Below, one piece after another: positions 2,223 to 41,424 of a stretch of DNA of 55,279 nucleotides. The notes below the pieces were generated by a model that was not told where the DNA came from, did no database searches, and saw nothing but the letters and a program-made list of their open reading frames with translations. The stretch lies in NCBI GenBank assembly GCA_964648985.1, contig CAZYMS010000008.1, positions 1-55,279 on the forward strand. The letters run 5' to 3'. A program made the position numbers and the translations under genes. The DNA comes from an uncultured Candidatus Saccharibacteria bacterium. Its GTDB lineage: Bacteria > Patescibacteriota > Doudnabacteria > UBA920. The number at the start of each line of letters is the position of its first letter. Within the stretch, counting starts at the first letter, position 1.

Positions 2223-3887
2223 ATGCTGCTGTATATAATTTTAATTGTAGATCTTGTACTATTGGCCGTAATGATTGCGGTCTATATTCACTATTCCTTC
2301 CGGGAACGCAATTTGCTTCAGGGCCAGGTTGGTCAGGCGCATGAACTGCAGCAGCGTATTTACCAAATTCAGGTTTTAAAAGAAATAGGCGAGCGCATTG
2401 GCTATAGTTTAGATACCAACAAAATTGTAGAGATTATAACCAGTAGTCTTGGTAACCTGCTTGAGTACGATACGGTTTCCTATATGGTACTGCAGGAGAA
2501 TGGCGAAAAGCTCATTTTTAAATGCGACGTAAACAATAGCGTAACGCACAATTTTTTGAATGACGTAAAAGAGAAAATGCTTTTGGCTATTAGCGCCATT
2601 TTAGACAAAGATTTAAAAACAAAGCCGCTTGACGAAAGTATTACCGGTAATATTTTAGACGATAATTTAAAAATATCGTTAAAGTCGTACTTTAACTTGC
2701 CGGTTGTTATTGGTGACAAGCTGGTAGGACTTATTAACGTAGCTTCTCACGAAGCGGGTCAGTATGGTGATGCACAGGCTTCCATTCTTTATTCCATTAC
2801 CAACCAAGCGGCTACTGCAGTGTCGAAACTCCAGCTTATACTTGAAAGTGAAAAGGGGAAGCTTGTCTCGGTTATAAACTCCATGACAGATGGAGTAGTT
2901 ATGGCGGACATGCACAATCAAGTGCTGGTATCTAACCCTGCAGTAAAAAAGCTTTTGGAAATTCAAAGTGGTACAGAAGCAACTATGTACGACGTAGTAG
3001 ATGCTTTGGCTGGTAAGGTTGATATTCGCACTAAAATCGAACAAGCCATAGGGACTCACGAACCCGTGGTGGTAAATAATGTGCAGCTCAAAAACCACGT
3101 GGTGGAAATGACCATTACCCCCGTGCGGAGCCAGCAAGGGGAGCAGCTTGGTGCTGCTGTTGTGTTCCACGACATTACTACTGAAAAAGATTTGGAAAAA
3201 GTGCGGCAAGACTTTACTGCCATGATGGTGCACGAACTTCGAGCTCCTTTGACTGCGGTGCGCTGGTCAAGTGAGTCGTTGGACAAAGCTGCTATTCCTG
3301 GAAGTCAAATAGACGCAGCAAAAGTAAAAGAAACGGCTACAACTATAGGTGCTGCATCACGCAATATGCTCGAGCTGGTGAACGACTTACTCGATGTAGC
3401 TAAGATAGAAGCAGGGAAGTTCGACTTAAATATTCAAGAATACGATATAATTGCCATCCTTAAGGAGCAAATACAGACATTTAAGGCTTTGGCTGAAACT
3501 AAGCATATAGAGCTCAAAATTACCGCTCCAGAAAAATTTGTGTTAAAATGTGATAAAATTCGTATATCCCAGGCTTTTGAGAATTTGCTGTCAAATGCTA
3601 TTAAATATAGCGACGGAGGAGAAGTAATGGCATCATTTGCTCAGGACCAGCAAAAGAATGTTGCTATTATTTCCGTAAAAGACGCAGGAGTGGGCATTGC
3701 CCGCGAAGACTTGCCCATGCTGTTCTCAAAGTTTCGTCAACTAAAGAACGTAGACAATGCTCGTAAAGGTACAGGTCTTGGACTTGTGGTTACTAAAGGT
3801 ATTGTAGAGGCTCATGGCGGACAAATATGGGCTGAAAGCGCCGGGGAAAACATGGGAACTACATTTTCTTTCTCCCTTCCGCTGTAA
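2223..3887 (+). CDS. sensor histidine kinase (N-terminal TM, GAF-like, PAS-like, HisKA, HATPase_c)
   Basis: H-box MVHELRAPLT, N-box LLSNAIKYS, G-boxes DAGVGI and GTGLGLVV. Confidence 0.9.
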   Translation: MLLYIILIVDLVLLAVMIAVYIHYSFRERNLLQGQVGQAHELQQRIYQIQVLKEIGERIGYSLDTNKIVEIITSSLGNLLEYDTVSYMVLQENGEKLIFKCDVNNSVTHNFLNDVKEKMLLAISAILDKDLKTKPLDESITGNILDDNLKISLKSYFNLPVVIGDKLVGLINVASHEAGQYGDAQASILYSITNQAATAVSKLQLILESEKGKLVSVINSMTDGVVMADMHNQVLVSNPAVKKLLEIQSGTEATMYDVVDALAGKVDIRTKIEQAIGTHEPVVVNNVQLKNHVVEMTITPVRSQQGEQLGAAVVFHDITTEKDLEKVRQDFTAMMVHELRAPLTAVRWSSESLDKAAIPGSQIDAAKVKETATTIGAASRNMLELVNDLLDVAKIEAGKFDLNIQEYDIIAILKEQIQTFKALAETKHIELKITAPEKFVLKCDKIRISQAFENLLSNAIKYSDGGEVMASFAQDQQKNVAIISVKDAGVGIAREDLPMLFSKFRQLKNVDNARKGTGLGLVVTKGIVEAHGGQIWAESAGENMGTTFSFSLPL

Positions 3888-3937: not shown

Positions 3938-4031
3938 ATCCAATATCTAATTACTAATTTCCAATAAAATGCTGAATTCCAAATAAGCATTGAGCATTGG
4001 ACATTGTATTGGAGATTAGATATTGGAAATT
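3938..4031. repeat. word-based inverted repeat (CCAATA/TCTAAT words)
   Basis: TCCAATATCTAAT (3939-3951) is exactly complementary to ATTAGATATTGGA (4015-4027). AATTTCCAATA (3956-3966) is complementary to TATTGGAAATT (4021-4031). Confidence 0.7.
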
Positions 4032-4042
4032 AGAAATTTTAT

Positions 4043-4432
4043 ATGGCACAAAAGATTGTTATCGCAGAGGACGATAAACTCCTCTCTGGATCTTTAGTAA
4101 CTGCATTTACCGATGCTGGTTTTGAGGTACACCCTGCCTATGATGGCGAAGAGGCAGTGGCAAAGATAAAAGAAATAAAGCCAGACGCTGCACTGCTGGA
4201 CGTTATGATGCCAAAGCTCGACGGCATAGGTGTGCTCTGGGAAATAAAAGCAAATGCTGAAACAGCAGATATGCCTGTAGTAGTTCTTACGAATATGGCC
4301 GATATGGATACTATAAGCAAAATTATGGAAGCTGGCGGCACCGACTATTTGCTTAAGAGCGACCAGTCTATAGATAAAATTATAGAAAAAGTGCAACAGG
4401 TATTGGCCCGCAGTCAGGCTGCTAAACAATAA
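4043..4432 (+). CDS. single-domain response regulator (CheY-like)
   Basis: IAEDD, LLDVMMPKLDG, VVVLTN and LLKS receiver motifs. Lies immediately downstream of the kinase gene. Confidence 0.85.
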   Translation: MAQKIVIAEDDKLLSGSLVTAFTDAGFEVHPAYDGEEAVAKIKEIKPDAALLDVMMPKLDGIGVLWEIKANAETADMPVVVLTNMADMDTISKIMEAGGTDYLLKSDQSIDKIIEKVQQVLARSQAAKQ

Positions 4433-4437
4433 ACTGT

Positions 4438-4938
4438 ATGCCAGCAGGGCTGTATCATGGCTCAAGTAAGTCAGGGCTAACCGAAATCGGCCCTCGGGCT
4501 GTGTCTGTGCGAGATACTGCAGAAGGTGCAGTTGTTTTTGCGACTCCAGACCCAGCTATTGCCAGTATGTTTTTAGTACCTGTTCGTCAACATTCTGGCA
4601 GGTTCAATGGTGTGCCTTACTTTGTTGCCATAAAAGCAGATTTTGAAATGCGCGACCTAGGTGGGTCCATTTATACTATCAAATCCGATGGTTTTTCGTT
4701 TGATCACGACAAAGGCTTGGGCGAGCTAGAATGGACATGTGCAAACTCAGTACAGGTTGTATCAGAAACCCATTACAATTCCGCACTCCAGTGTATGCTA
4801 GAACATGGAGTACAAGTGTTTTTGGTAGACAAGGCTACTTTTGAACAAATAGACAAGGCCGAAGACCATGGTTTGTCCATACTTCATCGCTGCCTATCAG
4901 AAAATGTCCTTAGAAACATAAACCCTCAGAAGTTTTAG
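4438..4938 (+). CDS. hypothetical protein (166 aa), 5 nt after the response regulator gene
   Basis: Long ORF, apparently co-transcribed. The LYHGSS ... GAVVFATP ... ELEWT string weakly recalls H-Y-E ADP-ribosyltransferase folds (see findings). Confidence 0.55.
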   Translation: MPAGLYHGSSKSGLTEIGPRAVSVRDTAEGAVVFATPDPAIASMFLVPVRQHSGRFNGVPYFVAIKADFEMRDLGGSIYTIKSDGFSFDHDKGLGELEWTCANSVQVVSETHYNSALQCMLEHGVQVFLVDKATFEQIDKAEDHGLSILHRCLSENVLRNINPQKF

Positions 4939-4994
4939 CCTGTCATTTCAAATTGGTGTATTATTCCTATTTCCTAACTCCTACCTCCTAATTC

Positions 4995-5477
4995 ATGCTT
5001 CGTAATTCCGACTTCTTCGTCCTCGCCCACAACATCCGATCGCTTCATAATGTTGGTTCAATTTTCCGAACCAGTGATGTGTTTGCCGTATCAAAACTAT
5101 TCTTAAGTGGTTATACTGGTCATCCACCTGATCCACGGCTCGCCAAGGTTGCTCTGGGCGCCGAATTAACTGTACCCTGGGAATATAATAAGTCTTCGGT
5201 AAGGATTATTAAGAAGCTAAAGCTAGAATATCCTGAGCTTACTGTTGTTGGCCTGGAAAATAATTTGCCGAATACTATTCTTTTGCAGAGTTTTAAGCCC
5301 TCGGGTCCAGTACTGCTCGTTCTTGGTGAAGAAGTAAGGGGCCTTCCAAAAAATGTAAGAACATTGTGTAATGCATTCGTGGAAATACCGCAGTTTGGCA
5401 CGAAAGAGTCATTAAACGTGTCAGTTGCATTTGGAATTGCTGCGCATCACATAGCTACGACTATCCACCAAAAATGA
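4995..5477 (+). CDS. SpoU/TrmH-family RNA 2'-O-methyltransferase
   Basis: NVGSIFRTSD, LLVLGEEVRGLP and IPQFGTKESLNVSVAFGIA are SPOUT motifs. Confidence 0.75.
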   Translation: MLRNSDFFVLAHNIRSLHNVGSIFRTSDVFAVSKLFLSGYTGHPPDPRLAKVALGAELTVPWEYNKSSVRIIKKLKLEYPELTVVGLENNLPNTILLQSFKPSGPVLLVLGEEVRGLPKNVRTLCNAFVEIPQFGTKESLNVSVAFGIAAHHIATTIHQK

Positions 5478-25219: not shown

Positions 25220-25397
25220 GTATATTATTTAATTATTTTTAGCATACCACGTTGCTATGAATTTGAGCGCTCTAGTCACTATTCGCGCGAATAAGGGCTA
25301 GAGTTTTAGACAGATGTTACAATCTCATTGGGCGTCTGCTTTCCAAAGGGGTGTCTTCGTTATTTCAATAGTAACGAAAAAATCGCTTGGCAGCGAT

Positions 25398-25652
25398 TTA
25401 GTCAGCGAGGAGGCCTTGGGGTAACGGTATACCCAATTTTGCAGATACCTGTTTTGCCCAGGTTTCTAATATTTCTACCTTACGGCGAAGTATTATATGT
25501 TCGTCTTGAAAATCTTTAACTATCTTAGTAAGGTTGTCCGTAGATGTCTGTATGGTGATAAGCTTCCCATCCATGCTATCAAGTCGGTCCTCCAAGTGGG
25601 AGAACTTCTCATCCATATATGTAAATAACGGCGTAAGGTCACTGTCAGACAT
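25398..25652 (-). CDS. small coiled-coil protein (84 aa), paralog of 22788-23042
   Basis: MSDSDLTPLFTYMDEKF...ETWAKQVSAKLGIPLP aligns end to end with the other copy. Confidence 0.6.
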   Translation of the reverse strand: MSDSDLTPLFTYMDEKFSHLEDRLDSMDGKLITIQTSTDNLTKIVKDFQDEHIILRRKVEILETWAKQVSAKLGIPLPQGLLAD

Positions 25653-25689
25653 GCTACTATAATACCACTTTTCGCCAATTCAATAAAAG

Positions 25690-25717
25690 TTGCTTTTTTA
25701 TGCCTTTATTGTATAAT
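25690..25717 (+). promoter_or_regulatory. sigma70-type promoter upstream of tRNA-Gln
   Basis: TTGCTT, 16-nt spacer, TATAAT, ending 33 nt before the tRNA 5' end. Confidence 0.5.
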
Positions 25718-25750
25718 AGTCTAGCAATTTAAACCAATTACATAGTACAT

Positions 25751-25825
25751 TGCCCGGTAGCCAAGTGGTAAGGCAGAGGACTCTGAATCCTCCATCCGAA
25801 GGTTCGAATCCTTCCCGGGCAGCCA
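25751..25825 (+). tRNA. tRNA-Gln (anticodon CTG), CCA encoded
   Basis: Folded by hand. Acceptor TGCCCGG/CCGGGCA (U1-A72), D arm GCC-AAGTGGTAA-GGC, anticodon stem GAGGA/TCCTC with loop CTCTGAA, T arm GAAGG-TTCGAAT-CCTTC, discriminator G, CCA. Confidence 0.9.
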
Positions 25826-25828
25826 ACC

Positions 25829-25853
25829 AAAATCGCCGAACAGGCGGTTTTTT
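25829..25853 (+). terminator. weak terminator-like hairpin after the tRNA
   Basis: AAAATCGCC-GAACA-GGCGGTTTT with a short GC core. Read-through into the next gene is plausible. Confidence 0.4.
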
Positions 25854-25889
25854 GTTATGCTAACTTACAAGATGGGCTAATATAAAGGA

Positions 25890-26606
25890 ATGCAAGAACT
25901 TCACGATAACAAAATAATACTACTGAGTAAGTTCAATGATTTCATTAAAACTGATATACAGGCTGCTCTCGGGGAGCTGAAAGATATCAAAACGGAAAAA
26001 AATCGCTTTCATCTTCAAAAGCTGGTATATATAGATTTAGTCAATCGATTTGATTCGTTGATTGACTCTATGCTGTTGGCTTTTGCTACAGAAGATGGCA
26101 TGTTCCGCGAGCGAATACTGAAGAATTGGAAAGAAATTCCTGTATATAAACAAGAGATGTACGAAGTACTTATGTCCATCAACGTTAAAGAGTATCTTGG
26201 CCAGAAGATGTCTGAGGCTGTTAAGGCTGAATATTTAAGTAAACGTCACTCAGATAAATTACGAATACTATTAAAAACTTGTTTCGCATGGGAAGATACT
26301 GAGTTGCAACGGCCTCGGGTGGACAGTAACGGTAGTATTGGAAGAATCCGTCGAAGACTTGGTAGAAAGAATCCGACTCAGGTGCCTGGATTCGCAGACT
26401 GGTTGTATTCTCGAAGGAATGCCTTAGTTCATGGAGATAAAAATCATTTTATTCAACAAGACCGAGAAATTATCGAACAAAAGTTCCAGGTGCTGGTACC
26501 TTTGTCAATCGTAATTAAATTATCTTCCATTACCACAGCAGCAAGGTTTTATTCCGATCTGTGCAAGTTAATGCAAAGAAAAATAGATAATGTAATTATT
26601 GCATAA
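25890..26606 (+). CDS. HEPN-domain protein (putative RNase; RiboL-PSP-HEPN-like)
   Basis: YSRRNALVHGDKNH gives R176-x4-H181 near the C-terminus of a helical-looking 238-aa protein. AT-rich. The next gene is an L-PSP/RidA gene. Confidence 0.6.
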   Translation: MQELHDNKIILLSKFNDFIKTDIQAALGELKDIKTEKNRFHLQKLVYIDLVNRFDSLIDSMLLAFATEDGMFRERILKNWKEIPVYKQEMYEVLMSINVKEYLGQKMSEAVKAEYLSKRHSDKLRILLKTCFAWEDTELQRPRVDSNGSIGRIRRRLGRKNPTQVPGFADWLYSRRNALVHGDKNHFIQQDREIIEQKFQVLVPLSIVIKLSSITTAARFYSDLCKLMQRKIDNVIIA

Positions 26607-26633
26607 AGATCTAAGCTTTTAAACATCAATAAT

Positions 26634-26981
26634 ATGGCAATAACATTTCCATTGAGTACGTATAGAAAAGCAGGGGATTTGGTATTCATGTCGGGGCAGA
26701 TAGGTATGAAGGATGGTGAATTAATAGAGGGCGGTATAGAAATAGAAACTCGACAGACTATTCAAAATATTGCTGGTATTTTAGAAGGTGTTGGTCTAAG
26801 TCTTGCGAATGTTGTTTCGTCAGAAGTATTTTTAACTTCATTCGAGGAAGACTACGCACTCATGAACGATGTGTATAGAGAGCTTTTTATGGAACCATAT
26901 CCAGCTCGTATTTGTGTTGGCGTAAAAGCTTTGCCGCGTAATGCTAAAGTAGAAATAAAAGTAATAGCATTGGCTGTATAA
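26634..26981 (+). CDS. ridA: RidA/YjgF/L-PSP family protein
   Basis: DLVFMSGQIG, ETRQTIQNI, PARICVGVKALP and VEIKVIA motifs. Confidence 0.85.
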   Translation: MAITFPLSTYRKAGDLVFMSGQIGMKDGELIEGGIEIETRQTIQNIAGILEGVGLSLANVVSSEVFLTSFEEDYALMNDVYRELFMEPYPARICVGVKALPRNAKVEIKVIALAV

Positions 26982-26982
26982 C

Positions 26983-27546
26983 ATGCAAGAAGAATTGGCG
27001 AGACTTTTTTCTTTCAGTGATATACCGAATTGTATAGATATACTTAAACTGCTTGATGTTAACACAAGGGGCAAGGTTTACATGTTGGGTGGTGGAGTTT
27101 TTCGGCAGATTACTTCAAAATATTGGAAGGAAAAAATTGAGTATAGAGACTTCGATTTTGTTGCTCCTGAGGTGGTCGAAGAACTCACATTGCCAAGGGG
27201 TTGGGTTGCGCAAAAAAACAGCTACGGGGCCCATAAGGTTTTTACCGGAGAAACAACTATTGATTTATGGTCTCACGCCCAACAATACTCTATTGTTAGT
27301 CGGGGGCTTCCATTTACTATTGAAGCTGTGCTGCAGCTAACTCCATTAACCATTCAATCCATTGCATATGATTTGCAGGAGAACAGTGTGAAGGGCGGTG
27401 CTGGTTTGGATGCCATCCGCTCGCGAACTGTTGGAGTAAACTGTTTGGACCAGGCAAAACATTATTGTAGTCTGAAAGGTTTCTCTGTAAATGAATTTAT
27501 TCAACAAAAAGCCATGGCACTGGGTTTCCGGCCAGTCTTTATTTAG
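26983..27546 (+). CDS. nucleotidyltransferase resembling the head domain of CCA-adding/poly(A) polymerase enzymes (head only, 187 aa)
   Basis: LGGGVFRQ ... RDFDFVA ... GETTIDLWSH ... PLTIQSIAYDL ... GGAGLDAIRSRTV match pol-beta NTase motifs in CCA-enzyme order. 1-nt gap after the ridA stop. Confidence 0.5.
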   Translation: MQEELARLFSFSDIPNCIDILKLLDVNTRGKVYMLGGGVFRQITSKYWKEKIEYRDFDFVAPEVVEELTLPRGWVAQKNSYGAHKVFTGETTIDLWSHAQQYSIVSRGLPFTIEAVLQLTPLTIQSIAYDLQENSVKGGAGLDAIRSRTVGVNCLDQAKHYCSLKGFSVNEFIQQKAMALGFRPVFI

Positions 27547-27582
27547 AAACCACCAACATCTCAATTTCTAAGTTTAGTGCAA

Positions 27583-28110
27583 ATGAAAAAATACGTAGCG
27601 CTGTTGCGCGGAATAAATGTGGGTGGGAATAATAAGGTGGAAATGAAAAGGCTTAAACAAGTGTTTGAGAGATTAGGTTATGGGAATGTATCTACGTATA
27701 TAAATTCTGGCAATGTTATTTTTGAAAGCAAAACTATACCCAAAGCAGGGGATATAGAAAAGGCACTCAAAAAAGCATTTGGGTTTGTCATTGGTGTTAT
27801 TGTGCGCGATGCAAAGAACATTGCAAAAGTAGTTAAGGCTATTCCTGCTGGGTGGGAAAATAATACAGAAGTGAAAACAGATATTTTATTTTTGTGGGAC
27901 GAGTACAGCAAAAAGAGTTCGCTTAATTTAATAATTCCACACCCCGAAGCAGACAAGCTGAAATACGCAGACGGTGCTATTATATGGAGCATAAACCGAA
28001 AACTGCATACCAAGAGTGGCGTACGGAAATTTATAGGCACGCCGCTCTATAAAAATATGACCGCCCGCAACGTTAATACTGTTCGGAAGCTTGCATTGCT
28101 AATGGAATAA
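27583..28110 (+). CDS. DUF1697 family protein
   Basis: MKKYVALLRGINVGGNNKVEMKRLK...YINSGNVIF signature. Start placed at the ATG at 27583. Confidence 0.7.
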   Translation: MKKYVALLRGINVGGNNKVEMKRLKQVFERLGYGNVSTYINSGNVIFESKTIPKAGDIEKALKKAFGFVIGVIVRDAKNIAKVVKAIPAGWENNTEVKTDILFLWDEYSKKSSLNLIIPHPEADKLKYADGAIIWSINRKLHTKSGVRKFIGTPLYKNMTARNVNTVRKLALLME

Positions 28111-28119
28111 TTATAAATA

Positions 28120-29346
28120 TTGGATATTAAAACTTTAGTAAATTATATGCTTGGAGGTGAATATAGCTCGCTAGAATCCATGGCCGATTGGCATCCCGAA
28201 AGTGAGCAGCGTAAAAAAGAACAAGGTATACCAAGGGGCGGGCGCATAGAGTATCCGACTAATGAAGGGGACAAAGTGGAACTGGTGTGGCAGGTGTCTC
28301 GCCCTACTCAGAAACGTTTGCGGAGTGATGTAAATAAAAATCCTGAATTATTAGACTCTTCGGAAGTAGAACTCTCGGAAAAACTTCAGGATATGGGGGT
28401 AGTAAATGATAAAGACATACTGCCTCGTAGAGAGCCATTTGTAGCAGGTCCTGAGGATTATGTGGAACAAGCTGGAGAAGGTGAAGCCGTTATATTCTTA
28501 CCCGGCGTGGCGCTGGAGGGGGACTCAGGTCCGGTTGTGGAGTCAGGGAATCATTTTGCAAATGCACGACAAGCAAAAACTTATACCATATCTACAAGGT
28601 TGGGTAGTCCCACTACAGAAAACTCGCAAGAAATACAAGCTGAGGCAATATTAAAATTTATAACCGAACAAGGATTAACGAAAATAACTATTGTTGGTAA
28701 CTCGCAAGGTGCGAATAAAGGAATTGATCTGGCCTGGCTCATCCAAGAATCAAACAAAGTAGAGGGTGCCATGCATATTGAGATTGAAGGTCTTGTTCTC
28801 ACCAGCCCTGGTGGGATAATTGAGCAAGATGAAAATCAGCTCACAAATAATTTTTTTAAAGATTCATTAATAAATACTACTCCTGAGGTTGTGAACCAGG
28901 CTATAAAGAATCCTACGAAATACACGCAGGGTATTGCTGCTTCGTCGAAGTTGGGTGCAAGTGTTGGATCTAACATGGCAAAAGAAGGTTTGAAGGGTCA
29001 GCTCGGTAAGCGCACCGTACGCGAATCTAAAGAAGCGGCAAGAATAAATGACCATGCGCGTGAACTTACTATGCCCGTTGTAATTGTGGTTGGAGAAAAA
29101 GATGCGGCGTTCAATGCAGATAAATTTGTGCCAGAGGTTGCGCACGATCAGTCAGTGTGGTCGCAACAACAGAGAGAGAAAAAAATGCGACAGGACCTGT
29201 TCCACAATGCAACTGGGGTTAGGGTGCTTAAAGCAGAGCATAATGGAGTGCATGGAGTACATTATTTTAGAGAAGATCAAATTGCTAACACTGTTATGTA
29301 TATGCTGGACCGAATGAAAAGAAGTACAGTCGTAGATCAAAAATAG
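28120..29346 (+). CDS. hypothetical protein with alpha/beta-hydrolase-like core
   Basis: ITIVGNSQGANKG gives a GxSxG nucleophile-elbow candidate. Start is the TTG at 28120 or the ATG at 28147. Confidence 0.45.
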   Translation: MDIKTLVNYMLGGEYSSLESMADWHPESEQRKKEQGIPRGGRIEYPTNEGDKVELVWQVSRPTQKRLRSDVNKNPELLDSSEVELSEKLQDMGVVNDKDILPRREPFVAGPEDYVEQAGEGEAVIFLPGVALEGDSGPVVESGNHFANARQAKTYTISTRLGSPTTENSQEIQAEAILKFITEQGLTKITIVGNSQGANKGIDLAWLIQESNKVEGAMHIEIEGLVLTSPGGIIEQDENQLTNNFFKDSLINTTPEVVNQAIKNPTKYTQGIAASSKLGASVGSNMAKEGLKGQLGKRTVRESKEAARINDHARELTMPVVIVVGEKDAAFNADKFVPEVAHDQSVWSQQQREKKMRQDLFHNATGVRVLKAEHNGVHGVHYFREDQIANTVMYMLDRMKRSTVVDQK

Positions 29347-29408
29347 CTCATCGCAAAACGATAAACGATGCCTTTTGTTATGCTCGTGCTTAATATTCTA
29401 TTTATACT

Positions 29409-31208
29409 ATGGAGAAGAAAAAATATACGATTCAAAATTTTCTAGAAGTGAAGGTAAGTAAGGATCCGCATTTTAGCCCCGATGGAATGGAAGTGGCGTA
29501 TTTATCGAGCTTGAGTGGTACGTCTCAGATTTATCTGGTGCCAGCTAGAGGGGGCACCTCTGTACAGCTTACCGACTTTCCAGACTCAGTATCGCGTATG
29601 GTGTTTTCTCCCACTGAACATGTAATTGTATTTGCAAAGTCCATAGGGGGTAACGAGCGCGATCAGTTATTTCTCATTGACACCCGTACCAGAGAGGTCC
29701 GCGCCCTTACGAATAATCCCGGTGTAAAATATTCTCTCGGTGAATTTTCTCCAGATGGTAAGTATATTTCTTATTCTTCTACAGAGCGAAATCATAAAGA
29801 TTTTGATGTGTATATACTGAATATTGAAAGTGGCGAGGTGCGGCGCGTGTTTGAACTGGGGGATTGGTGTAGGCCAGGTAAGTTTTCGCCGTTAGGGACA
29901 TATGTAAGCGTTATTAGATCGTATACCAATGAGAATATAGACCTCTATATATGTAATTTAGAAACGGGAGACACAGAGCATATTACGCCGCATGTAGGAG
30001 ATGTATCTAATTGGGTTGTTGGTTGGTCAATGGATGAGTCAAAAATATATATTTTAACGGATCAGGATACCGAGTTTATTCACCTTACCGCATATTCGCT
30101 TCACACGAAAACCTTGGAACAAGTCCTCGCACTGCAAGGGGACATAGACGAAGTTTCATTTGACTACACGGGCAGTCGTGCTGTCGTGGTGCTGAATAAT
30201 AATGGGTATAGCAGAGTAAGTATGTACGACACTACAGATTGGAGTGCGGTTCCTCTTACTATTGCAGATGGGCAGGTTGGTAGTCTGGGTTTCGCCCCCG
30301 ACAATACAACACTAGCGTTCGCCTGGGAAGATTCTCGCCACGCGTCAAACATATGTGTGGTCAATATAAAAACAGGAGAGCAAGTGCAGCTTACAAATAG
30401 TCCTCAGGGCGTTCCCCCAGAAGTTTTAGTAGATCCAGAACTTATAACCTATAAGTCGTTTGATGGTCTTGAAGTGTCAGCGTTTGTGTATAAGCCAAAA
30501 GAACTCAGAGAAGGCGCTAGGGCTCCAACTATTATAAATATACATGGTGGCCCTTCAGCTCAGCACCGGCCACAACTTTTATTGCTCACTCAATATTTTG
30601 TGTACGCCGGCTATGTAGTAGTGGCGCCAAATGTTCGTGGGAGTACGGGCTACGGTAAAACATATGCCACACTTGATGATGTAGAAAAGCGGCTTGACTC
30701 AGTCAAAGATATTATTGCACTGCGAGAATATCTTCAGACCATCCCTGAAGTAGACATGGAAAAGCTGGTGCTTATGGGCGGAAGCTACGGCGGGTTTATG
30801 GTATTGGCGTGCATGGCGTTTTATCCGGAGCTGTGGGCTGCGGGGGTTGAGACAGTAGGTATAGCGAACTTTGTTACGTTCCTAGAGAACACCGCTGACT
30901 ATCGCCGTGCAAACCGCGAAGCAGAATACGGTTCTCTTGCAACAGATAGAGAGCTATTAAAATCAATCTCTCCCATTCATGCCGCGGACAAAATTACCGC
31001 GCCGCTATTTATTATTCATGGAGCAAACGACCCACGCGTACCATTGTCCGAAGCAGAGCAAATCGCTACTAAGATGAAAGAATTGGGACGGCGAGCAGAG
31101 CTGCTAGTCTACATGGATGAAGGGCATGGTCTGTCCAAGCTTAAGAACAGGCTCGATGCATATCCAAAAGTTGTAGAGTTTTTACGGAATGAATTATCAA
31201 AGATTTGA
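29409..31208 (+). CDS. S9-family serine peptidase (prolyl oligopeptidase/acylaminoacyl peptidase type; beta-propeller + hydrolase)
   Basis: FSPDG repeats in the N-terminal half. HGGP, GGSYGG nucleophile, HGANDPRV and EGHG in the C-terminal half. Confidence 0.85.
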   Translation: MEKKKYTIQNFLEVKVSKDPHFSPDGMEVAYLSSLSGTSQIYLVPARGGTSVQLTDFPDSVSRMVFSPTEHVIVFAKSIGGNERDQLFLIDTRTREVRALTNNPGVKYSLGEFSPDGKYISYSSTERNHKDFDVYILNIESGEVRRVFELGDWCRPGKFSPLGTYVSVIRSYTNENIDLYICNLETGDTEHITPHVGDVSNWVVGWSMDESKIYILTDQDTEFIHLTAYSLHTKTLEQVLALQGDIDEVSFDYTGSRAVVVLNNNGYSRVSMYDTTDWSAVPLTIADGQVGSLGFAPDNTTLAFAWEDSRHASNICVVNIKTGEQVQLTNSPQGVPPEVLVDPELITYKSFDGLEVSAFVYKPKELREGARAPTIINIHGGPSAQHRPQLLLLTQYFVYAGYVVVAPNVRGSTGYGKTYATLDDVEKRLDSVKDIIALREYLQTIPEVDMEKLVLMGGSYGGFMVLACMAFYPELWAAGVETVGIANFVTFLENTADYRRANREAEYGSLATDRELLKSISPIHAADKITAPLFIIHGANDPRVPLSEAEQIATKMKELGRRAELLVYMDEGHGLSKLKNRLDAYPKVVEFLRNELSKI

Positions 31209-31242
31209 CGCGGGCATTATTATGAGTGACCGAATATAGTAT

Positions 31243-31584
31243 ATGGACACATTTCAAGAAGTAATAGCACAAACAAAAGAAGTTATACAGCGATTTGAAA
31301 AGATAGAGGGTAAGCCGTGGGGCATAGAGGCAGCTATGATAGAATTGTCCAAACAGGTGGGTCAGCTCTCCGCGCTTATTATGATGCAAGAGCACTACTA
31401 TGCGAATGATAGAGATACCGACCAGCCGCAGTATAAAGTTTCCCAAGAGAAAATAGCAGATGAACTAAGTGATATATTGCTCATTATTATCCGCATTGCG
31501 GACATTTACAAGATAGACTTAGAAGCCGCACACACAGAAGCTCTTGAAGTTGCTAAAAAATATTTAGTATCGAAAGGTGTATAA
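31243..31584 (+). CDS. MazG-like nucleotide pyrophosphohydrolase (all-alpha NTP-PPase)
   Basis: AAMIELSKQVGQLS and IADELSDILLIIIRIAD give the EXXE/EXXD-type helices. Confidence 0.6.
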   Translation: MDTFQEVIAQTKEVIQRFEKIEGKPWGIEAAMIELSKQVGQLSALIMMQEHYYANDRDTDQPQYKVSQEKIADELSDILLIIIRIADIYKIDLEAAHTEALEVAKKYLVSKGV

Positions 31585-31592
31585 GTTGTGGA

Positions 31593-32339
31593 ATGCAGAT
31601 GCATAAAAAATTAGTCACTAACAAGATAGCGTGGGATGCTGTTGCAAACCAGTTCTTTGCTCATAGTGCCTTACCAGAGTGGGGGCCATTTGGAATTGGA
31701 AAAGATTTAGGACTCCTAAAGAATATTAAAAACAAGACCATTCTCGAAATCGGTTTTGGGAGCGGGCATTCTTTAAATTATTTGGCAAAGCGTGGTGCTA
31801 AAAAAGTCTACGGTGTAGACATATCCGAGGCGCAATATGCGTATGCAACACAGATAAACAAGCAATATATTCAAAAAGCTAGGGTTCAGCTTTTTCTTAG
31901 CCCTATGGAACAAAAGCTTGTATTGCCACGCGTTGATTTGGTGGTATCTATATACGCACTTGGGTGGACCATAGATCCAAAGAAAACGTTAGAGAATATC
32001 TATTCGTACCTAAAACCTGGCGGCACATTTATCTGGAGCTGGGAGCACTCGCTGTTTTCCGATGTTACTGACACTGGTAGCGGTCTTGTAGTAAGCCATG
32101 CATACCATAATGAGAAAGAATTGCGTAAGCTTAATTGGAAGGGCAAGGTACCAATATATATAACCTACCTTAAAACCGATACTTGGTTTAAACTTTTAAG
32201 GGGGGCGGGATTCGTAGTTGAGGAGTACATGGAACCAGCGCCAAAAAATAGTAAGTTTTCTAGTAAAAACTATTACACTTTACAGAAAGCTAAACATATT
32301 CCCGCCACCATGATATGGGTGTGCAAGAAGCCCGTGTAA
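31593..32339 (+). CDS. class I SAM-dependent methyltransferase
   Basis: ILEIGFGSGH motif I, VYGVDISE motif II. Confidence 0.75.
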   Translation: MQMHKKLVTNKIAWDAVANQFFAHSALPEWGPFGIGKDLGLLKNIKNKTILEIGFGSGHSLNYLAKRGAKKVYGVDISEAQYAYATQINKQYIQKARVQLFLSPMEQKLVLPRVDLVVSIYALGWTIDPKKTLENIYSYLKPGGTFIWSWEHSLFSDVTDTGSGLVVSHAYHNEKELRKLNWKGKVPIYITYLKTDTWFKLLRGAGFVVEEYMEPAPKNSKFSSKNYYTLQKAKHIPATMIWVCKKPV

Positions 32340-32393
32340 TAGGTAACATCTAAATAATGCTCCGTCTTTAAAAATTATAGTAGTAATAAGGTT

Positions 32394-33311
32394 TTGCAAT
32401 TAATACCATATATGAATCAATTAGAGTATAAAGAGTTAGGCGCAAATATTCGGCAGGTGTATCTAGATAGCGATAAGTACCAACTCGATAAGCACGTACC
32501 TGCATTTAAAAAAGACGGAGAATATGTTGGTGACTTTTTTAGTTTGACCATGTTTGAGCTTGATGGCGAAAATCCGCCCATTTTCTATCATACCTATAGC
32601 CCATACGATGTAATAACCGGCAAGAGCTCGGACCATGCAGTTATATTCCGGTCAGGGCAAATAGTTATGTCTACAGAATTTACACCGTATATGCGCCAGC
32701 GTACTGGTGTTATGACCGCAGTTGTTCTAGAAGGATTGGGCTTACAAGAGATACGTTCTCGAAAAGTTTTGTATATAGGAACTGGTAATATCGCTCAGCA
32801 CGATCTTGCCGCGCTTAAAGCATATTATCCAGACTTGCAAACAGTCTCATATATCAACCGCACAGGGAAGGCTGGTGCTTTCCGTGACGTTGCCAATGAC
32901 ATTGGTGTAACAATAGAGCAGGGGAGTTTAGAACAGATTGGTGACTCCGACATTATTATTTGTCATACGAATTCAAAGGACCCAGTTCTTGCTGCTGCAA
33001 TGAAAAAGCATATTAAGCAGGGAGCTGTAATTACTGTTTTTTCTTCTGAAAATTTTACAGAAGTCGCAAGTGAGTTTTTCGATACCAATGATGCAACGGT
33101 GCTTATTGATTGGGCTCAAACTATTAATGAGTCGCCGGATTTACAGGTAGCAGTAGAACAGGGTATTGCAGATGCGGCTAAGTTAATACCTTTGAGACAG
33201 TTTTTCACCGAAGGAGCCGCAGGTAACAGCCGCTATACAATTTATCGTAGTCACGGTACCCCCATGCAGAACCTAGCTGCTTTGCAATTGCTTTTAAAAC
33301 AACAAAGTTAG
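32394..33311 (+). CDS. ornithine cyclodeaminase/mu-crystallin-like NAD(P)-binding protein
   Basis: VLYIGTGNIAQHDLAAL Rossmann segment at the position typical for this family. Start is the TTG at 32394 or the ATG at 32412. Confidence 0.45.
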   Translation: MQLIPYMNQLEYKELGANIRQVYLDSDKYQLDKHVPAFKKDGEYVGDFFSLTMFELDGENPPIFYHTYSPYDVITGKSSDHAVIFRSGQIVMSTEFTPYMRQRTGVMTAVVLEGLGLQEIRSRKVLYIGTGNIAQHDLAALKAYYPDLQTVSYINRTGKAGAFRDVANDIGVTIEQGSLEQIGDSDIIICHTNSKDPVLAAAMKKHIKQGAVITVFSSENFTEVASEFFDTNDATVLIDWAQTINESPDLQVAVEQGIADAAKLIPLRQFFTEGAAGNSRYTIYRSHGTPMQNLAALQLLLKQQS

Positions 33312-34675: not shown

Positions 34676-34715
34676 AGAGACAACACTTTTCGTGGCCACG
34701 AAAAGTGTTGTCTCT
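34676..34715. repeat. 40-bp perfect palindrome, family copy a
   Basis: AGAGACAACACTTTTCGTGG|CCACGAAAAGTGTTGTCTCT. Confidence 0.9.
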
Positions 34716-36331: not shown

Positions 36332-36368
36332 CCTTTCCACACTTTTCACCCCATTAACATCCCTCTCT

Positions 36369-36408
36369 AAAGACAGCACTGTTCGCGGCCGCGAACAGTG
36401 CTGTCTTT
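36369..36408. repeat. 40-bp perfect palindrome, family copy b
   Basis: AAAGACAGCACTGTTCGCGG|CCGCGAACAGTGCTGTCTTT. Differs from the other copies at paired positions in both arms. Confidence 0.9.
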
Positions 36409-37977: not shown

Positions 37978-38017
37978 AAAGACAACACTTTTCGCGGCCG
38001 CGAAAAGTGTTGACTTT
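37978..38017. repeat. 40-bp palindrome, family copy c (one mismatch)
   Basis: AAAGACAACACTTTTCGCGG|CCGCGAAAAGTGTTGACTTT. Confidence 0.9.
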
Positions 38018-41384: not shown

Positions 41385-41424
41385 AAAGACAACACTTTTT
41401 GTGGCCACAAAAAGTGTTGTCTTT
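41385..41424. repeat. 40-bp perfect palindrome, family copy d
   Basis: AAAGACAACACTTTTTGTGG|CCACAAAAAGTGTTGTCTTT. Confidence 0.9.

Follow-up and report, generated by a model that had tools for sequence, protein, structure and literature searches.

A HEPN-like gene beside a RidA gene behind tRNA-Gln: probable gene flux in a Patescibacteria chromosome

Four closely spaced genes directly behind a tRNA-Gln gene, encoding a HEPN-like protein (ORF1), a RidA/L-PSP protein (ORF2), a stand-alone nucleotidyltransferase (ORF3) and a DUF1697 protein (ORF4), raise the question of whether they form one RNA-targeting conflict/repair system, as originally predicted, or are unrelated neighbours. In the window, i.e., the whole stretch of 55,279 nucleotides that we analyzed, ARAGORN and Rfam agreed on tRNA-Gln(CUG), direct reading confirmed the promoter-like TTGCTT-16-TATAAT in front of it, and the ORF list and direct reading confirmed the four + strand ORFs behind it, the gaps between them and every motif that had been quoted for them. 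The features of the locus are as follows:

25398-25652, - strand: 84-aa orphan ORF on the far side of the tRNA unit (no significant Pfam match)
25690-25717, + strand: promoter-like TTGCTT-16-TATAAT, 5' of tRNA-Gln (direct reading)
25751-25825, + strand: tRNA-Gln, anticodon CTG, CCA encoded (ARAGORN; Rfam RF00005, 68.2 bits)
25829-25857, + strand: intrinsic-terminator-like hairpin and U-rich tract, 3' of tRNA-Gln (terminator scan, fold energy)
25890-26606, + strand: ORF1, 238 aa, HEPN-like, all-alpha (ORF list, family alignment, AF2 model)
26634-26981, + strand: ORF2, 115 aa, RidA/YjgF family (Pfam PF01042)
26983-27546, + strand: ORF3, 187 aa, stand-alone nucleotidyltransferase with a class II CCA head-domain fold (AF2, Foldseek)
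27577-28110, + strand: ORF4, 177 aa, DUF1697 (Pfam PF08002)
28120-29346, + strand: 408-aa gene, alpha/beta-hydrolase-like (weak Hydrolase_4 and Abhydrolase_3 matches)

The tRNA-Gln gene and ORF1 to ORF4 are separated by 64, 27, 1 and 30 nt, respectively. The tRNA promoter was missed by a consensus scan because its -35 hexamer matches at 3 of 6 positions; the promoter region and tRNA unit are conserved in both close relatives of this locus (88.6% and 85.5% nucleotide identity). The hairpin behind the tRNA, previously described as weak, in fact has a 9-bp stem (-11.4 kcal/mol, z = -2.8) and a U-rich tract, which is the form of an intrinsic terminator, and it is kept in the closest relative. ORF1 had also been called conspicuously AT-rich: its first 60 nt do contain 16 G+C, a value equally low in 2.5% of 60-nt windows of the sequence, but the GC content of the whole ORF (37.2%) is similar to that of ORF2 (37.9%) and ORF4 (39.0%), with an average of 43.8% over the entire window. 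The 84-aa ORF sits in DNA that comparison with the relatives showed to be window-specific (25308-25686), and no relative of it was found in any fetched locus.

The readings of ORF2 as RidA/L-PSP and of ORF4 as DUF1697 were upheld by Pfam, with matches to Ribonuc_L-PSP (PF01042) at 1.4e-29 and to PF08002 at 6e-39 (134 bits, against a cut-off of 24.4), respectively. ORF4 also matches PDB 2hiy (‘Hypothetical protein’) at 3.5e-16. ORF2 scores 97 bits against TIGR00004, under the 106-bit cut-off, it aligns with PDB 2csl across the PAR motif (4.7e-24), and chains annotated as enamine/imine deaminases are among its top PDB relatives. The PAR arginine is typical of the enamine/imine deaminases of the RidA family; ORF2 carries this deaminase-type arginine and is a canonical, ordinary RidA of that type, and calling L-PSP an “RNase” is a historical usage.

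Comparison with the two close relatives demonstrated that the neighbourhood is variable. In the first, L001 (approximately 78% nucleotide identity), RidA, ORF3 and DUF1697 are present and ORF1 is missing: homology ends exactly at the 3' end of the tRNA and restarts 2 nt before RidA, leaving window positions 25827-26631 (ORF1 and its 5' region) with no counterpart, and the genes at the 3' flank of tRNA-Gln in L001 encode an AAA_13 protein, a large serine recombinase and a ParB-methylase. The closest relative, L173 (approximately 82% nucleotide identity), has neither ORF1 nor ORF3; its gene order is glyoxalase, tRNA-Gln (- strand), a 247-aa dehydrogenase-like gene, RidA, an unrelated 119-aa ORF, DUF1697, a 249-aa ORF and the 408-aa gene, with the 247-aa gene replacing ORF1 and the 119-aa gene replacing ORF3. 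The amino-acid identity of ORF2 is 86% in L001 and 92% in L173, that of ORF4 is 86-88% in the two, and that of the 408-aa gene is about 83% in both. Both relatives keep tRNA-Gln without ORF1, and the tRNA unit of the window (25687-25861; 175 bp) is inverted with respect to both.

We consider it highly probable that this part of the chromosome of a tiny-genome member of the Patescibacteria is a fast-changing zone of gene flux, made up of unrelated neighbours that are not one system. The backbone common to the close relatives would be RidA, DUF1697 and the 408-aa hydrolase-like gene, with ORF1 and ORF3 as independently variable single-gene inserts; ORF1 would be a lineage-specific insert occupying a variable slot on the 3' side of tRNA-Gln, a slot that holds a serine-recombinase mobile element in L001 and is empty in L173. 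The proximity of ORF1 and RidA, which mimics the RiboL-PSP-HEPN arrangement, would then result from an older adjacency of tRNA-Gln and RidA combined with the insertion of ORF1 beside the tRNA. As in tRNA-flank integration hot spots and genomic islets, the break in homology between the relatives coincides exactly with the 3' end of the tRNA, L001 has its serine-recombinase element at that site, and an ORF1 relative (locus L171) rides inside a recombinase/ParB-methylase element related to that of L001. Unlike in such hot spots, the window lacks an integrase, and a search of it for att-like direct repeats of the tRNA 3' end or for other repeats bounding ORF1 found none; its insert is a single gene, and its tRNA unit is inverted. 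The case illustrates how chance, acting at a tRNA hot spot, can place a HEPN gene beside an L-PSP gene, and such chance adjacency is resolved quickly by sister-genome synteny.

The distribution of the four families was surveyed in loci from 56 other ORF1-family, 36 ORF3-family and 83 DUF1697 sources, using profile searches of all fetched loci together with tblastn; short peptide patterns were used to find these loci, so each family is represented by a biased sample, and the ORF3-family loci were gathered from a 10-sequence alignment. At least two of the four families occur together only in the window, in L001-L003 (RidA, ORF3 and DUF1697) and in L173 (RidA and DUF1697), and among the fetched loci the window alone has all four. 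No L-PSP/RidA gene is present in the flanks of the other ORF1-family loci (0 of 56), and the contexts of these ORF1 relatives vary, e.g., beside an R-M system, between aminoacyl-tRNA synthetase genes, or beside uvrB. A large conserved neighbour of the ORF1 relatives in Rhodobacteraceae, considered as a candidate partner, is UvrB, and its presence is therefore ordinary synteny. Across 31 loci, the ORF3 family lacks any conserved neighbour.

This survey bears directly on the original prediction, in which ORF1 to ORF4 are one RNA-targeting conflict/repair system with a HEPN RNase as effector, a nucleotidyltransferase of the CCA type for effector modification or for repair of the cleaved RNA, and accessory roles for RidA and DUF1697. 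The shared strand and tight spacing, the HEPN-type motif in ORF1 and the CCA-enzyme head fold in ORF3 all speak for such a system, as do the PADLOC match of ORF2 to PD-T4-2_B, which covers the L-PSP part only, and the existence of HEPN-L-PSP fusions, which occur in a validated defence system (PMC3710099; PMC10952713). However, the genes do not co-occur beyond the genus, the same locus lacks ORF1 in both close relatives and ORF3 in the closest, ORF1 matches neither PF18735 nor PD-T4-2_B, ORF3 is not an MNT-type antitoxin, and no relatives of ORF1 or of ORF3 were found on phages, plasmids or IMG/VR contigs. Because the four genes are not co-conserved, an outcome that the prediction itself had named as refuting it, the claim of a system fails, and we regard such a system as extremely improbable. 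It would have been a new defence/repair architecture; as it is not real, no effort is due to the four genes as a unit. Within this genus, the smaller set RidA-ORF3-DUF1697 could work as a functional operon (e.g., in nucleotide/metabolite handling) to which ORF1 is unrelated, and its order and spacing are indeed kept in L001-L003, the genes being 1 and 30 nt apart in the window, with an overlap of 4 nt in L001. We judge this very unlikely, since the closest relative has a different ORF, the 119-aa one, between RidA and DUF1697, the other 33 ORF3-family loci contain neither a RidA nor a DUF1697 gene, RidA lies within 4 kb in only one of 80 DUF1697 loci (L173) and ORF3 in none, and tight gene packing is found genome-wide. 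Given their operon-like spacing, these three genes may be co-transcribed, with some functional coupling, in this genus.

A further alternative takes tRNA-Gln and ORF1 as a functional pair, in which the HEPN-like protein would be expressed together with tRNA-Gln or would act on it, or ORF1 as a single-gene selfish element homing to tRNA 3' flanks. ORF1-family genes lie directly behind a same-strand tRNA in four lineages, this being tRNA-Gln in three (the window, 64 nt; L016, 44 nt; L085, about 42 nt) and tRNA-Ala in one (L084, 7 nt), and therefore a specific link to tRNA-Gln may exist; tRNA-Gln is also located 1.6-2.5 kb upstream in L019 and L024, and it accounts for 4 of the 8 tRNAs near ORF1-family genes. 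Nevertheless, the control families show similar tRNA adjacency, with 3 of 32 ORF3-family loci behind tRNA-Ala and 4 of 80 DUF1697 loci behind a tRNA (tRNA-Gln being 6 of the 44 tRNAs near DUF1697), which led us to downgrade the adjacency as a specific signal. The counts for L016 and L024 are not independent because the two share dnaX synteny, tRNAs are absent near most of the family, including every proteobacterial member, a terminator stands between tRNA and ORF1 in the window, and the close relatives keep the tRNA without the gene; we consider this alternative very unlikely. Also unlikely is a joint reading, with the ORF1 family tied functionally to tRNA genes, above all tRNA-Gln, and the ORF3 family a new class of body-less nucleotidyltransferases. 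Here, ORF1 would be a single-gene element that inserts at tRNA 3' flanks and is expressed by read-through starting at the tRNA promoter, or a tRNA-Gln RNase, and the ORF3 family would consist of minimal nucleotidyltransferases from bacteria and archaea with small genomes, class II-like and acting on a non-tRNA acceptor. The gene-flux reading leaves ORF1 and ORF3 as two unannotated single-gene families of known superfamilies.

HEPN domains are defined by a conserved Rx4-6H motif with a polar residue (N, D or H) right after the arginine, and, in their topology, helix 2 bears a conserved acidic residue and is separated from helix 3 by an insert (PMC3710099). In ORF1, R176 and H181, located within WLYSRRNALVHGDKNH, agree with this definition, R176, N177 and H181 all being invariant across 118 family sequences; in total, 18 residues are invariant in this alignment, among them R39, H41, R53, D55, D59, K123, D170 and D191. 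The AF2 model (pLDDT 91.5) agrees with the published topology, in that helix 165-181 terminates in the R-N-x3-H motif, the invariant D55 and D59 lie within helix 36-67 as helix-2 acidic residues, and residues 68-164 form the insert. ORF1 showed no significant match in Pfam, NCBIfam, PADLOC, PHROGs or PDB sequences, either as a single sequence or as a profile, and Foldseek found no significant match to the model in the PDB (best E = 2.3) or in BFVD, where the best match is an uncharacterised protein (E = 0.029). Sub-threshold matches among the 118 relatives were to HEPN_Apea (8 relatives; best E = 7.7e-4), RTasHEPN (14), PF18735 (8; best 0.0027) and PADLOC DzbB (60; best 3e-5). A profile built from 24 relatives gave no bridge to annotated HEPN families, its 120 best matches all being unannotated members of the core family. 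The original assignment of ORF1 to HEPN is thus backed by a family-invariant R-N-x3-H in the right structural position but not by a significant profile or fold match; by motif and modelled topology, ORF1 fits the HEPN superfamily. From the HEPN active-site layout, metal-independent RNA cleavage is the most likely, predicted activity of this family.

The original prediction also pointed to the RiboL-PSP-HEPN clade, which is defined by L-PSP fusion and by operons with ParB (PMC3710099). ORF1 resembles this clade (PF18735) as an all-alpha Rx4H protein whose gene adjoins an L-PSP/RidA gene. It is not a member of the clade, however: ORF1 has no PF18735 match at E <= 0.1 and no PD-T4-2_B match, the 8 of 118 relatives that match PF18735 do so below threshold (E >= 0.0027), and none of the 56 other sources shows the family fused to L-PSP or beside it. 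The accompanying statement that no function has been assigned to the clade by experiment is out of date, as PF18735 HEPN domains are tabulated in four defence systems, PD-T4-2, PD-T4-5, PD-T7-3 and ApeA (PMC10952713). The ORF1 family consists of solitary all-alpha proteins of 220-260 aa; a 63-69 aa partner gene, found with long-form relatives, is absent from the window. The family comprises 429 clusters, with a Pfam domain in none of the 120 listed, and is patchily distributed over Patescibacteria, Proteobacteria and Verrucomicrobia; this unannotated family is easily tested.

A small nucleotidyltransferase of the Pol-beta superfamily sharing a neighbourhood with a HEPN-type protein also recalls HEPN-MNT (HepT-MntA) toxin-antitoxin pairs. 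Unlike the nucleotidyltransferase of these pairs, ORF3 matches neither MNT profile (PF01909, PF18765) and folds like class II CCA enzymes; ORF1 and ORF3 are separated by RidA and are never together elsewhere among the fetched loci, and HEPN-MNT toxins match the ORF1 model weakly (TM about 0.49, E > 4). The motifs read in ORF3 are GGG-x2-R, D56-F-D58, D94, PLTIQSIAYD and GGAGLDAIRSR. Foldseek searches of the PDB with its AF2 model (pLDDT 96.7) returned 39 matches at E <= 1e-3, all of them CCA-adding enzymes, tRNA nucleotidyltransferases/tRNA-processing enzymes, or the E. coli poly(A) polymerase entries 3aqk/3aql/3aqm; the best TMq is 0.69 and the lowest E is 9e-7. In the family, G36, D56, D58 and D94 are invariant (n = 74) and lie on the expected strands of the model. 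ORF3 therefore resembles the head of class II CCA enzymes and poly(A) polymerase I in predicted fold and in its invariant G...DxD...D set; unlike these enzymes, it has 187 aa against 340-520 aa in the matched PDB chains, lacks the tRNA-binding neck, body and tail domains, and has no sequence match to the PolyA_pol head domain PF01743, which is matched by 1 of 74 relatives at E = 0.036. The predicted structure and the 39 fold matches agree in supporting the earlier reading of a CCA-enzyme-like head without neck and body.

At the sequence level, ORF3 had no matches in the Pfam, NCBIfam, PADLOC or PHROG libraries, and an HMM search of PDB sequences with ORF3 found no CCA enzyme. By reading, the family consensus has GTPLTIQS in place of an RRDFTINA-type motif, and EDxxR was not seen; RRD and EDxxR are nucleotide-selecting motifs of CCA-adding enzymes. 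With its head fold and intact G...DxD...D set and no RNA-holding neck or body, ORF3 is probably an active transferase. A literature search on PDB 2LA3, the CCA-adding enzyme head domain and DUF1697 yielded nothing of use; PDB 2LA3 itself indicates that head-only proteins exist, and its link to ORF3 is structural and weak (E = 0.07, Foldseek rank 48). The ORF3 family contains 753 representative clusters, nearly all of 180-200 aa, from Patescibacteria, DPANN archaea and Methanosarcinales, and, as an unannotated family of proteins of about 190 aa, it too is easily tested.

Our analysis located the tRNA-Gln gene, its promoter hexamers and four plus-strand ORFs in the window sequence as originally predicted, with each quoted motif at the residues given, and with gaps of 64 nt between the tRNA and ORF1 and of 27, 1 and 30 nt between successive ORFs:

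25690-25717, promoter-like TTGCTT-16-TATAAT
25751-25825, tRNA-Gln(CUG), identified by ARAGORN and Rfam
25890-26606, plus strand, ORF1 (HEPN-like)
26634-26981, plus strand, ORF2 (RidA)
26983-27546, plus strand, ORF3 (CCA-head-like nucleotidyltransferase)
27577-28110, plus strand, ORF4 (DUF1697)

Judged by sequence, the window is Patescibacteria genome DNA, and its MnmA is 58-68% identical to homologues from Doudnabacteria and other Patescibacteria MAGs. Two descriptions of the locus needed revision. The hairpin 3' of the tRNA, thought to be weak, has a 9-bp stem (-11.4 kcal/mol, z = -2.8) and a U-rich tract, is kept in the closest relative of the window locus (L173), and looks like a normal intrinsic terminator; ORF1, described as conspicuously AT-rich, does not stand out from ORF2 in AT content (GC 37.2% versus 37.9%).

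Genome and metagenome collections supplied relatives of ORF1, ORF3 and DUF1697 (56 other ORF1-family, 36 ORF3-family and 83 DUF1697 sources), and every fetched locus was searched for all four families using tblastn and profiles. At least two of the four families occurred together only in the window and its close relatives, L001-L003 and L173.

Families present in the loci where at least two of the four occur together
window: all four families
L001-L003: RidA, ORF3, DUF1697
L173: RidA, DUF1697

The original prediction suggested that these genes may form a single RNA-targeting conflict/repair system and proposed gene-neighbourhood conservation as a check; the four-gene set recurs in no other fetched locus, and with the families not co-conserved beyond this small group of relatives, the system reading is refuted, the observation itself being correct and the per-gene calls largely right. 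HEPN-MNT toxin-antitoxin pairs require an adjacent MNT-type transferase, whereas ORF3 is of another type and is unlinked to ORF1. What is left over is two unannotated families in known superfamilies, together with a weak tRNA adjacency after controls.

Alignment of the window with L001 (~78% nucleotide identity) starts 2 nt before RidA and spans DUF1697 and the following 408-aa gene. On the other side, homology ends exactly at the 3' end of tRNA-Gln, and window positions 25827-26631, containing the terminator and ORF1, have no L001 counterpart; the tRNA-Gln 3' flank in L001 carries genes for an AAA_13 ATPase, a large serine recombinase and a ParB-methylase. In L173 (~82% nucleotide identity), the left-hand glyoxalase gene and the right-hand RidA gene are those of the window; a 247-aa dehydrogenase-like gene stands where the window has ORF1, an unrelated 119-aa ORF stands where it has ORF3, and a 249-aa ORF comes after DUF1697. 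The slots separating the backbone genes therefore turn over independently of one another. The one at the tRNA 3' flank is occupied by ORF1, a mobile element or nothing, depending on the genome, and the picture of a HEPN gene beside an L-PSP gene probably arose from an older tRNA-Gln/RidA adjacency, with ORF1 inserted next to the tRNA. The 175-bp promoter-tRNA-terminator unit (window 25687-25861) is inverted relative to both L001 and L173, with the orientation of the flanking genes kept, and no inverted repeats were seen at the ends of this unit.

An 84-aa coiled-coil-like orphan ORF (25398-25652, minus strand) lies in window-specific DNA across the tRNA unit from ORF1, and no homologs were found in any fetched locus. 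The mobile elements at L001 1-5400 and L171 1-6800 are related, each with a ParB-methylase, an adjacent shared ORF and a large serine recombinase, and differ in cargo (an AAA_13 ATPase beside tRNA-Gln in L001; an 883-aa methylase and an ORF1 relative in L171). The window genes for an S9 prolyl-oligopeptidase family protein (29409-31208) and a methyltransferase (31593-32339) are not in L001 at this position, and for window 29350-32400 the only L173 match is one of 343 bp, to the spacer between these two genes (31241-31583).

The ORF1 family comprises 429 clusters, and the best 120 of the family matches listed have no Pfam annotation. In an alignment of 118 members, the invariant positions include R176, N177 and H181 as well as R39, H41, R53, D55, D59, K123, D170 and D191. 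The AF2 model is all-alpha (pLDDT 91.5) and runs from two long helices at the N-terminus through a large insert to a helix (165-181) ending in the R176-H181 motif, followed by a loop and C-terminal helices. The predicted structure and invariant residues fit the published description of HEPN domains (PMC3710099), in which helix 3 ends with Rx4-6H, the R being followed by a polar residue, helix 2 carries an acidic residue, and an insert separates helix 2 from helix 3. Profile matches were weak: HEPN_Apea and PF18735 each matched 8 of the 118 members, RTasHEPN 14 and PADLOC DzbB 60 (best 3e-5), and Foldseek with the ORF1 model returned no significant match. We consider ORF1 quite probably a HEPN superfamily member. 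Placement in the RiboL-PSP-HEPN clade, which is defined by L-PSP fusion and an operon with ParB (PMC3710099), and whose Pfam domain has been recorded from PD-T4-2, PD-T4-5, PD-T7-3 and ApeA, all of them defence systems (PMC10952713), is unsupported, as ORF1 shows neither a match to the clade profile nor the conserved linkage.

The genomic contexts of ORF1 relatives are diverse. For example, one adjoins an NgoPII-type R-M pair, one is within a recombinase/ParB-methylase element having genes in common with the L001 element, one has aminoacyl-tRNA synthetase genes on both sides, one is preceded by an FMN dehydrogenase gene, and those in Rhodobacteraceae adjoin uvrB. Long-form Patescibacteria relatives have a conserved upstream gene of 63-69 aa overlapping their start (MPILLGPFDPLKLIFNILN...; L007, L009, L011, L020, L022, L023, L024, L030 and L047); this gene, absent from the window and with no Pfam match, may encode their partner or antitoxin. 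No ORF1 or ORF3 relatives were found in phage, plasmid or IMG/VR collections. On one metagenome contig (L013), the gene 5 nt after the ORF1 relative (4433-5065) encodes a 210-aa product whose HEPN domain is a canonical Pfam one (PF05168, E = 6.9e-5).

The ORF1 relative directly follows tRNA-Gln in L016 (44 nt) and L085 (~42 nt), is found 1.6-2.5 kb downstream of tRNA-Gln in L019 and L024, and in L084 is 7 nt behind tRNA-Ala; these counts are not independent, because L016 and L024 have dnaX synteny in common. As controls, 3 of 32 ORF3-family loci (L062, L077, L078) are 42-67 nt behind tRNA-Ala, and 4 of 80 DUF1697 loci (L200, L220, L232, L237) are 67-121 nt behind tRNA-Ser, tRNA-Trp, tRNA-Gln or tRNA-Asn. 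The 44 tRNAs near DUF1697 include 6 tRNA-Gln and 13 tRNA-Ser. In these Patescibacteria genomes, small accessory genes in general seem to settle at tRNA flanks, and a specific ORF1/tRNA-Gln relation is possible, though unlikely.

ORF3 has no match in Pfam, NCBIfam, PADLOC, PHROGs or PDB sequences, and its family comprises 753 representative clusters (E <= 1e-3), almost all of 180-200 aa, with G36, D56, D58 and D94 invariant in 74 aligned sequences. Using the very confident AF2 model (pLDDT 96.7), Foldseek identified 39 PDB matches at E <= 1e-3 (best TMq 0.69), all of them entries for CCA-adding or tRNA nucleotidyltransferase/tRNA-processing enzymes, or 3aqk/3aql/3aqm, deposited as 'bacterial protein', which we take to be E. 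coli poly(A) polymerase. A weaker match was to PDB 2LA3 (191 aa), whose title includes 'reveals a CCA-adding enzyme head domain'. The call of a head-only CCA-type transferase therefore holds at the fold level, but not at the level of sequence family, where PF01743 matched 1 of 74 members (E = 0.036). ORF3 would act much as the catalytic head of a class II CCA enzyme does, and has none of the further domains by which a tRNA nucleotidyltransferase is defined. No conserved neighbour gene of this family was found in the fetched ORF3-family loci.

The two remaining assignments were confirmed, with ORF2 a canonical RidA/YjgF protein (Pfam 1.4e-29; PDB 2csl 4.7e-24, with the PAR arginine motif in the alignment) and ORF4 matching Pfam DUF1697 (6e-39), its nearest solved structure being PDB 2hiy, deposited as 'Hypothetical protein'. 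In the Doudnabacteria contig L175, the 5' part of the DUF1697 gene occurs three times, as copies or fragments (1235-1438, 2289-2367 and 4001-4512), and a 35-nt copy of the window tRNA-Gln terminator hairpin is present without any tRNA (3630-3664). In addition, a repeated palindrome of ~34-40 nt (GACAACACTTTTCGTGGCCACGAAAAGTGTTGTC), with no occurrences expected by chance, is present at several intergenic window sites (34679-34712, 37981-38014, 41388-41421 and ~36362-36408) and in the sister contig L001 (11116-11157), and resembles a family of REP-like or terminator hairpins.
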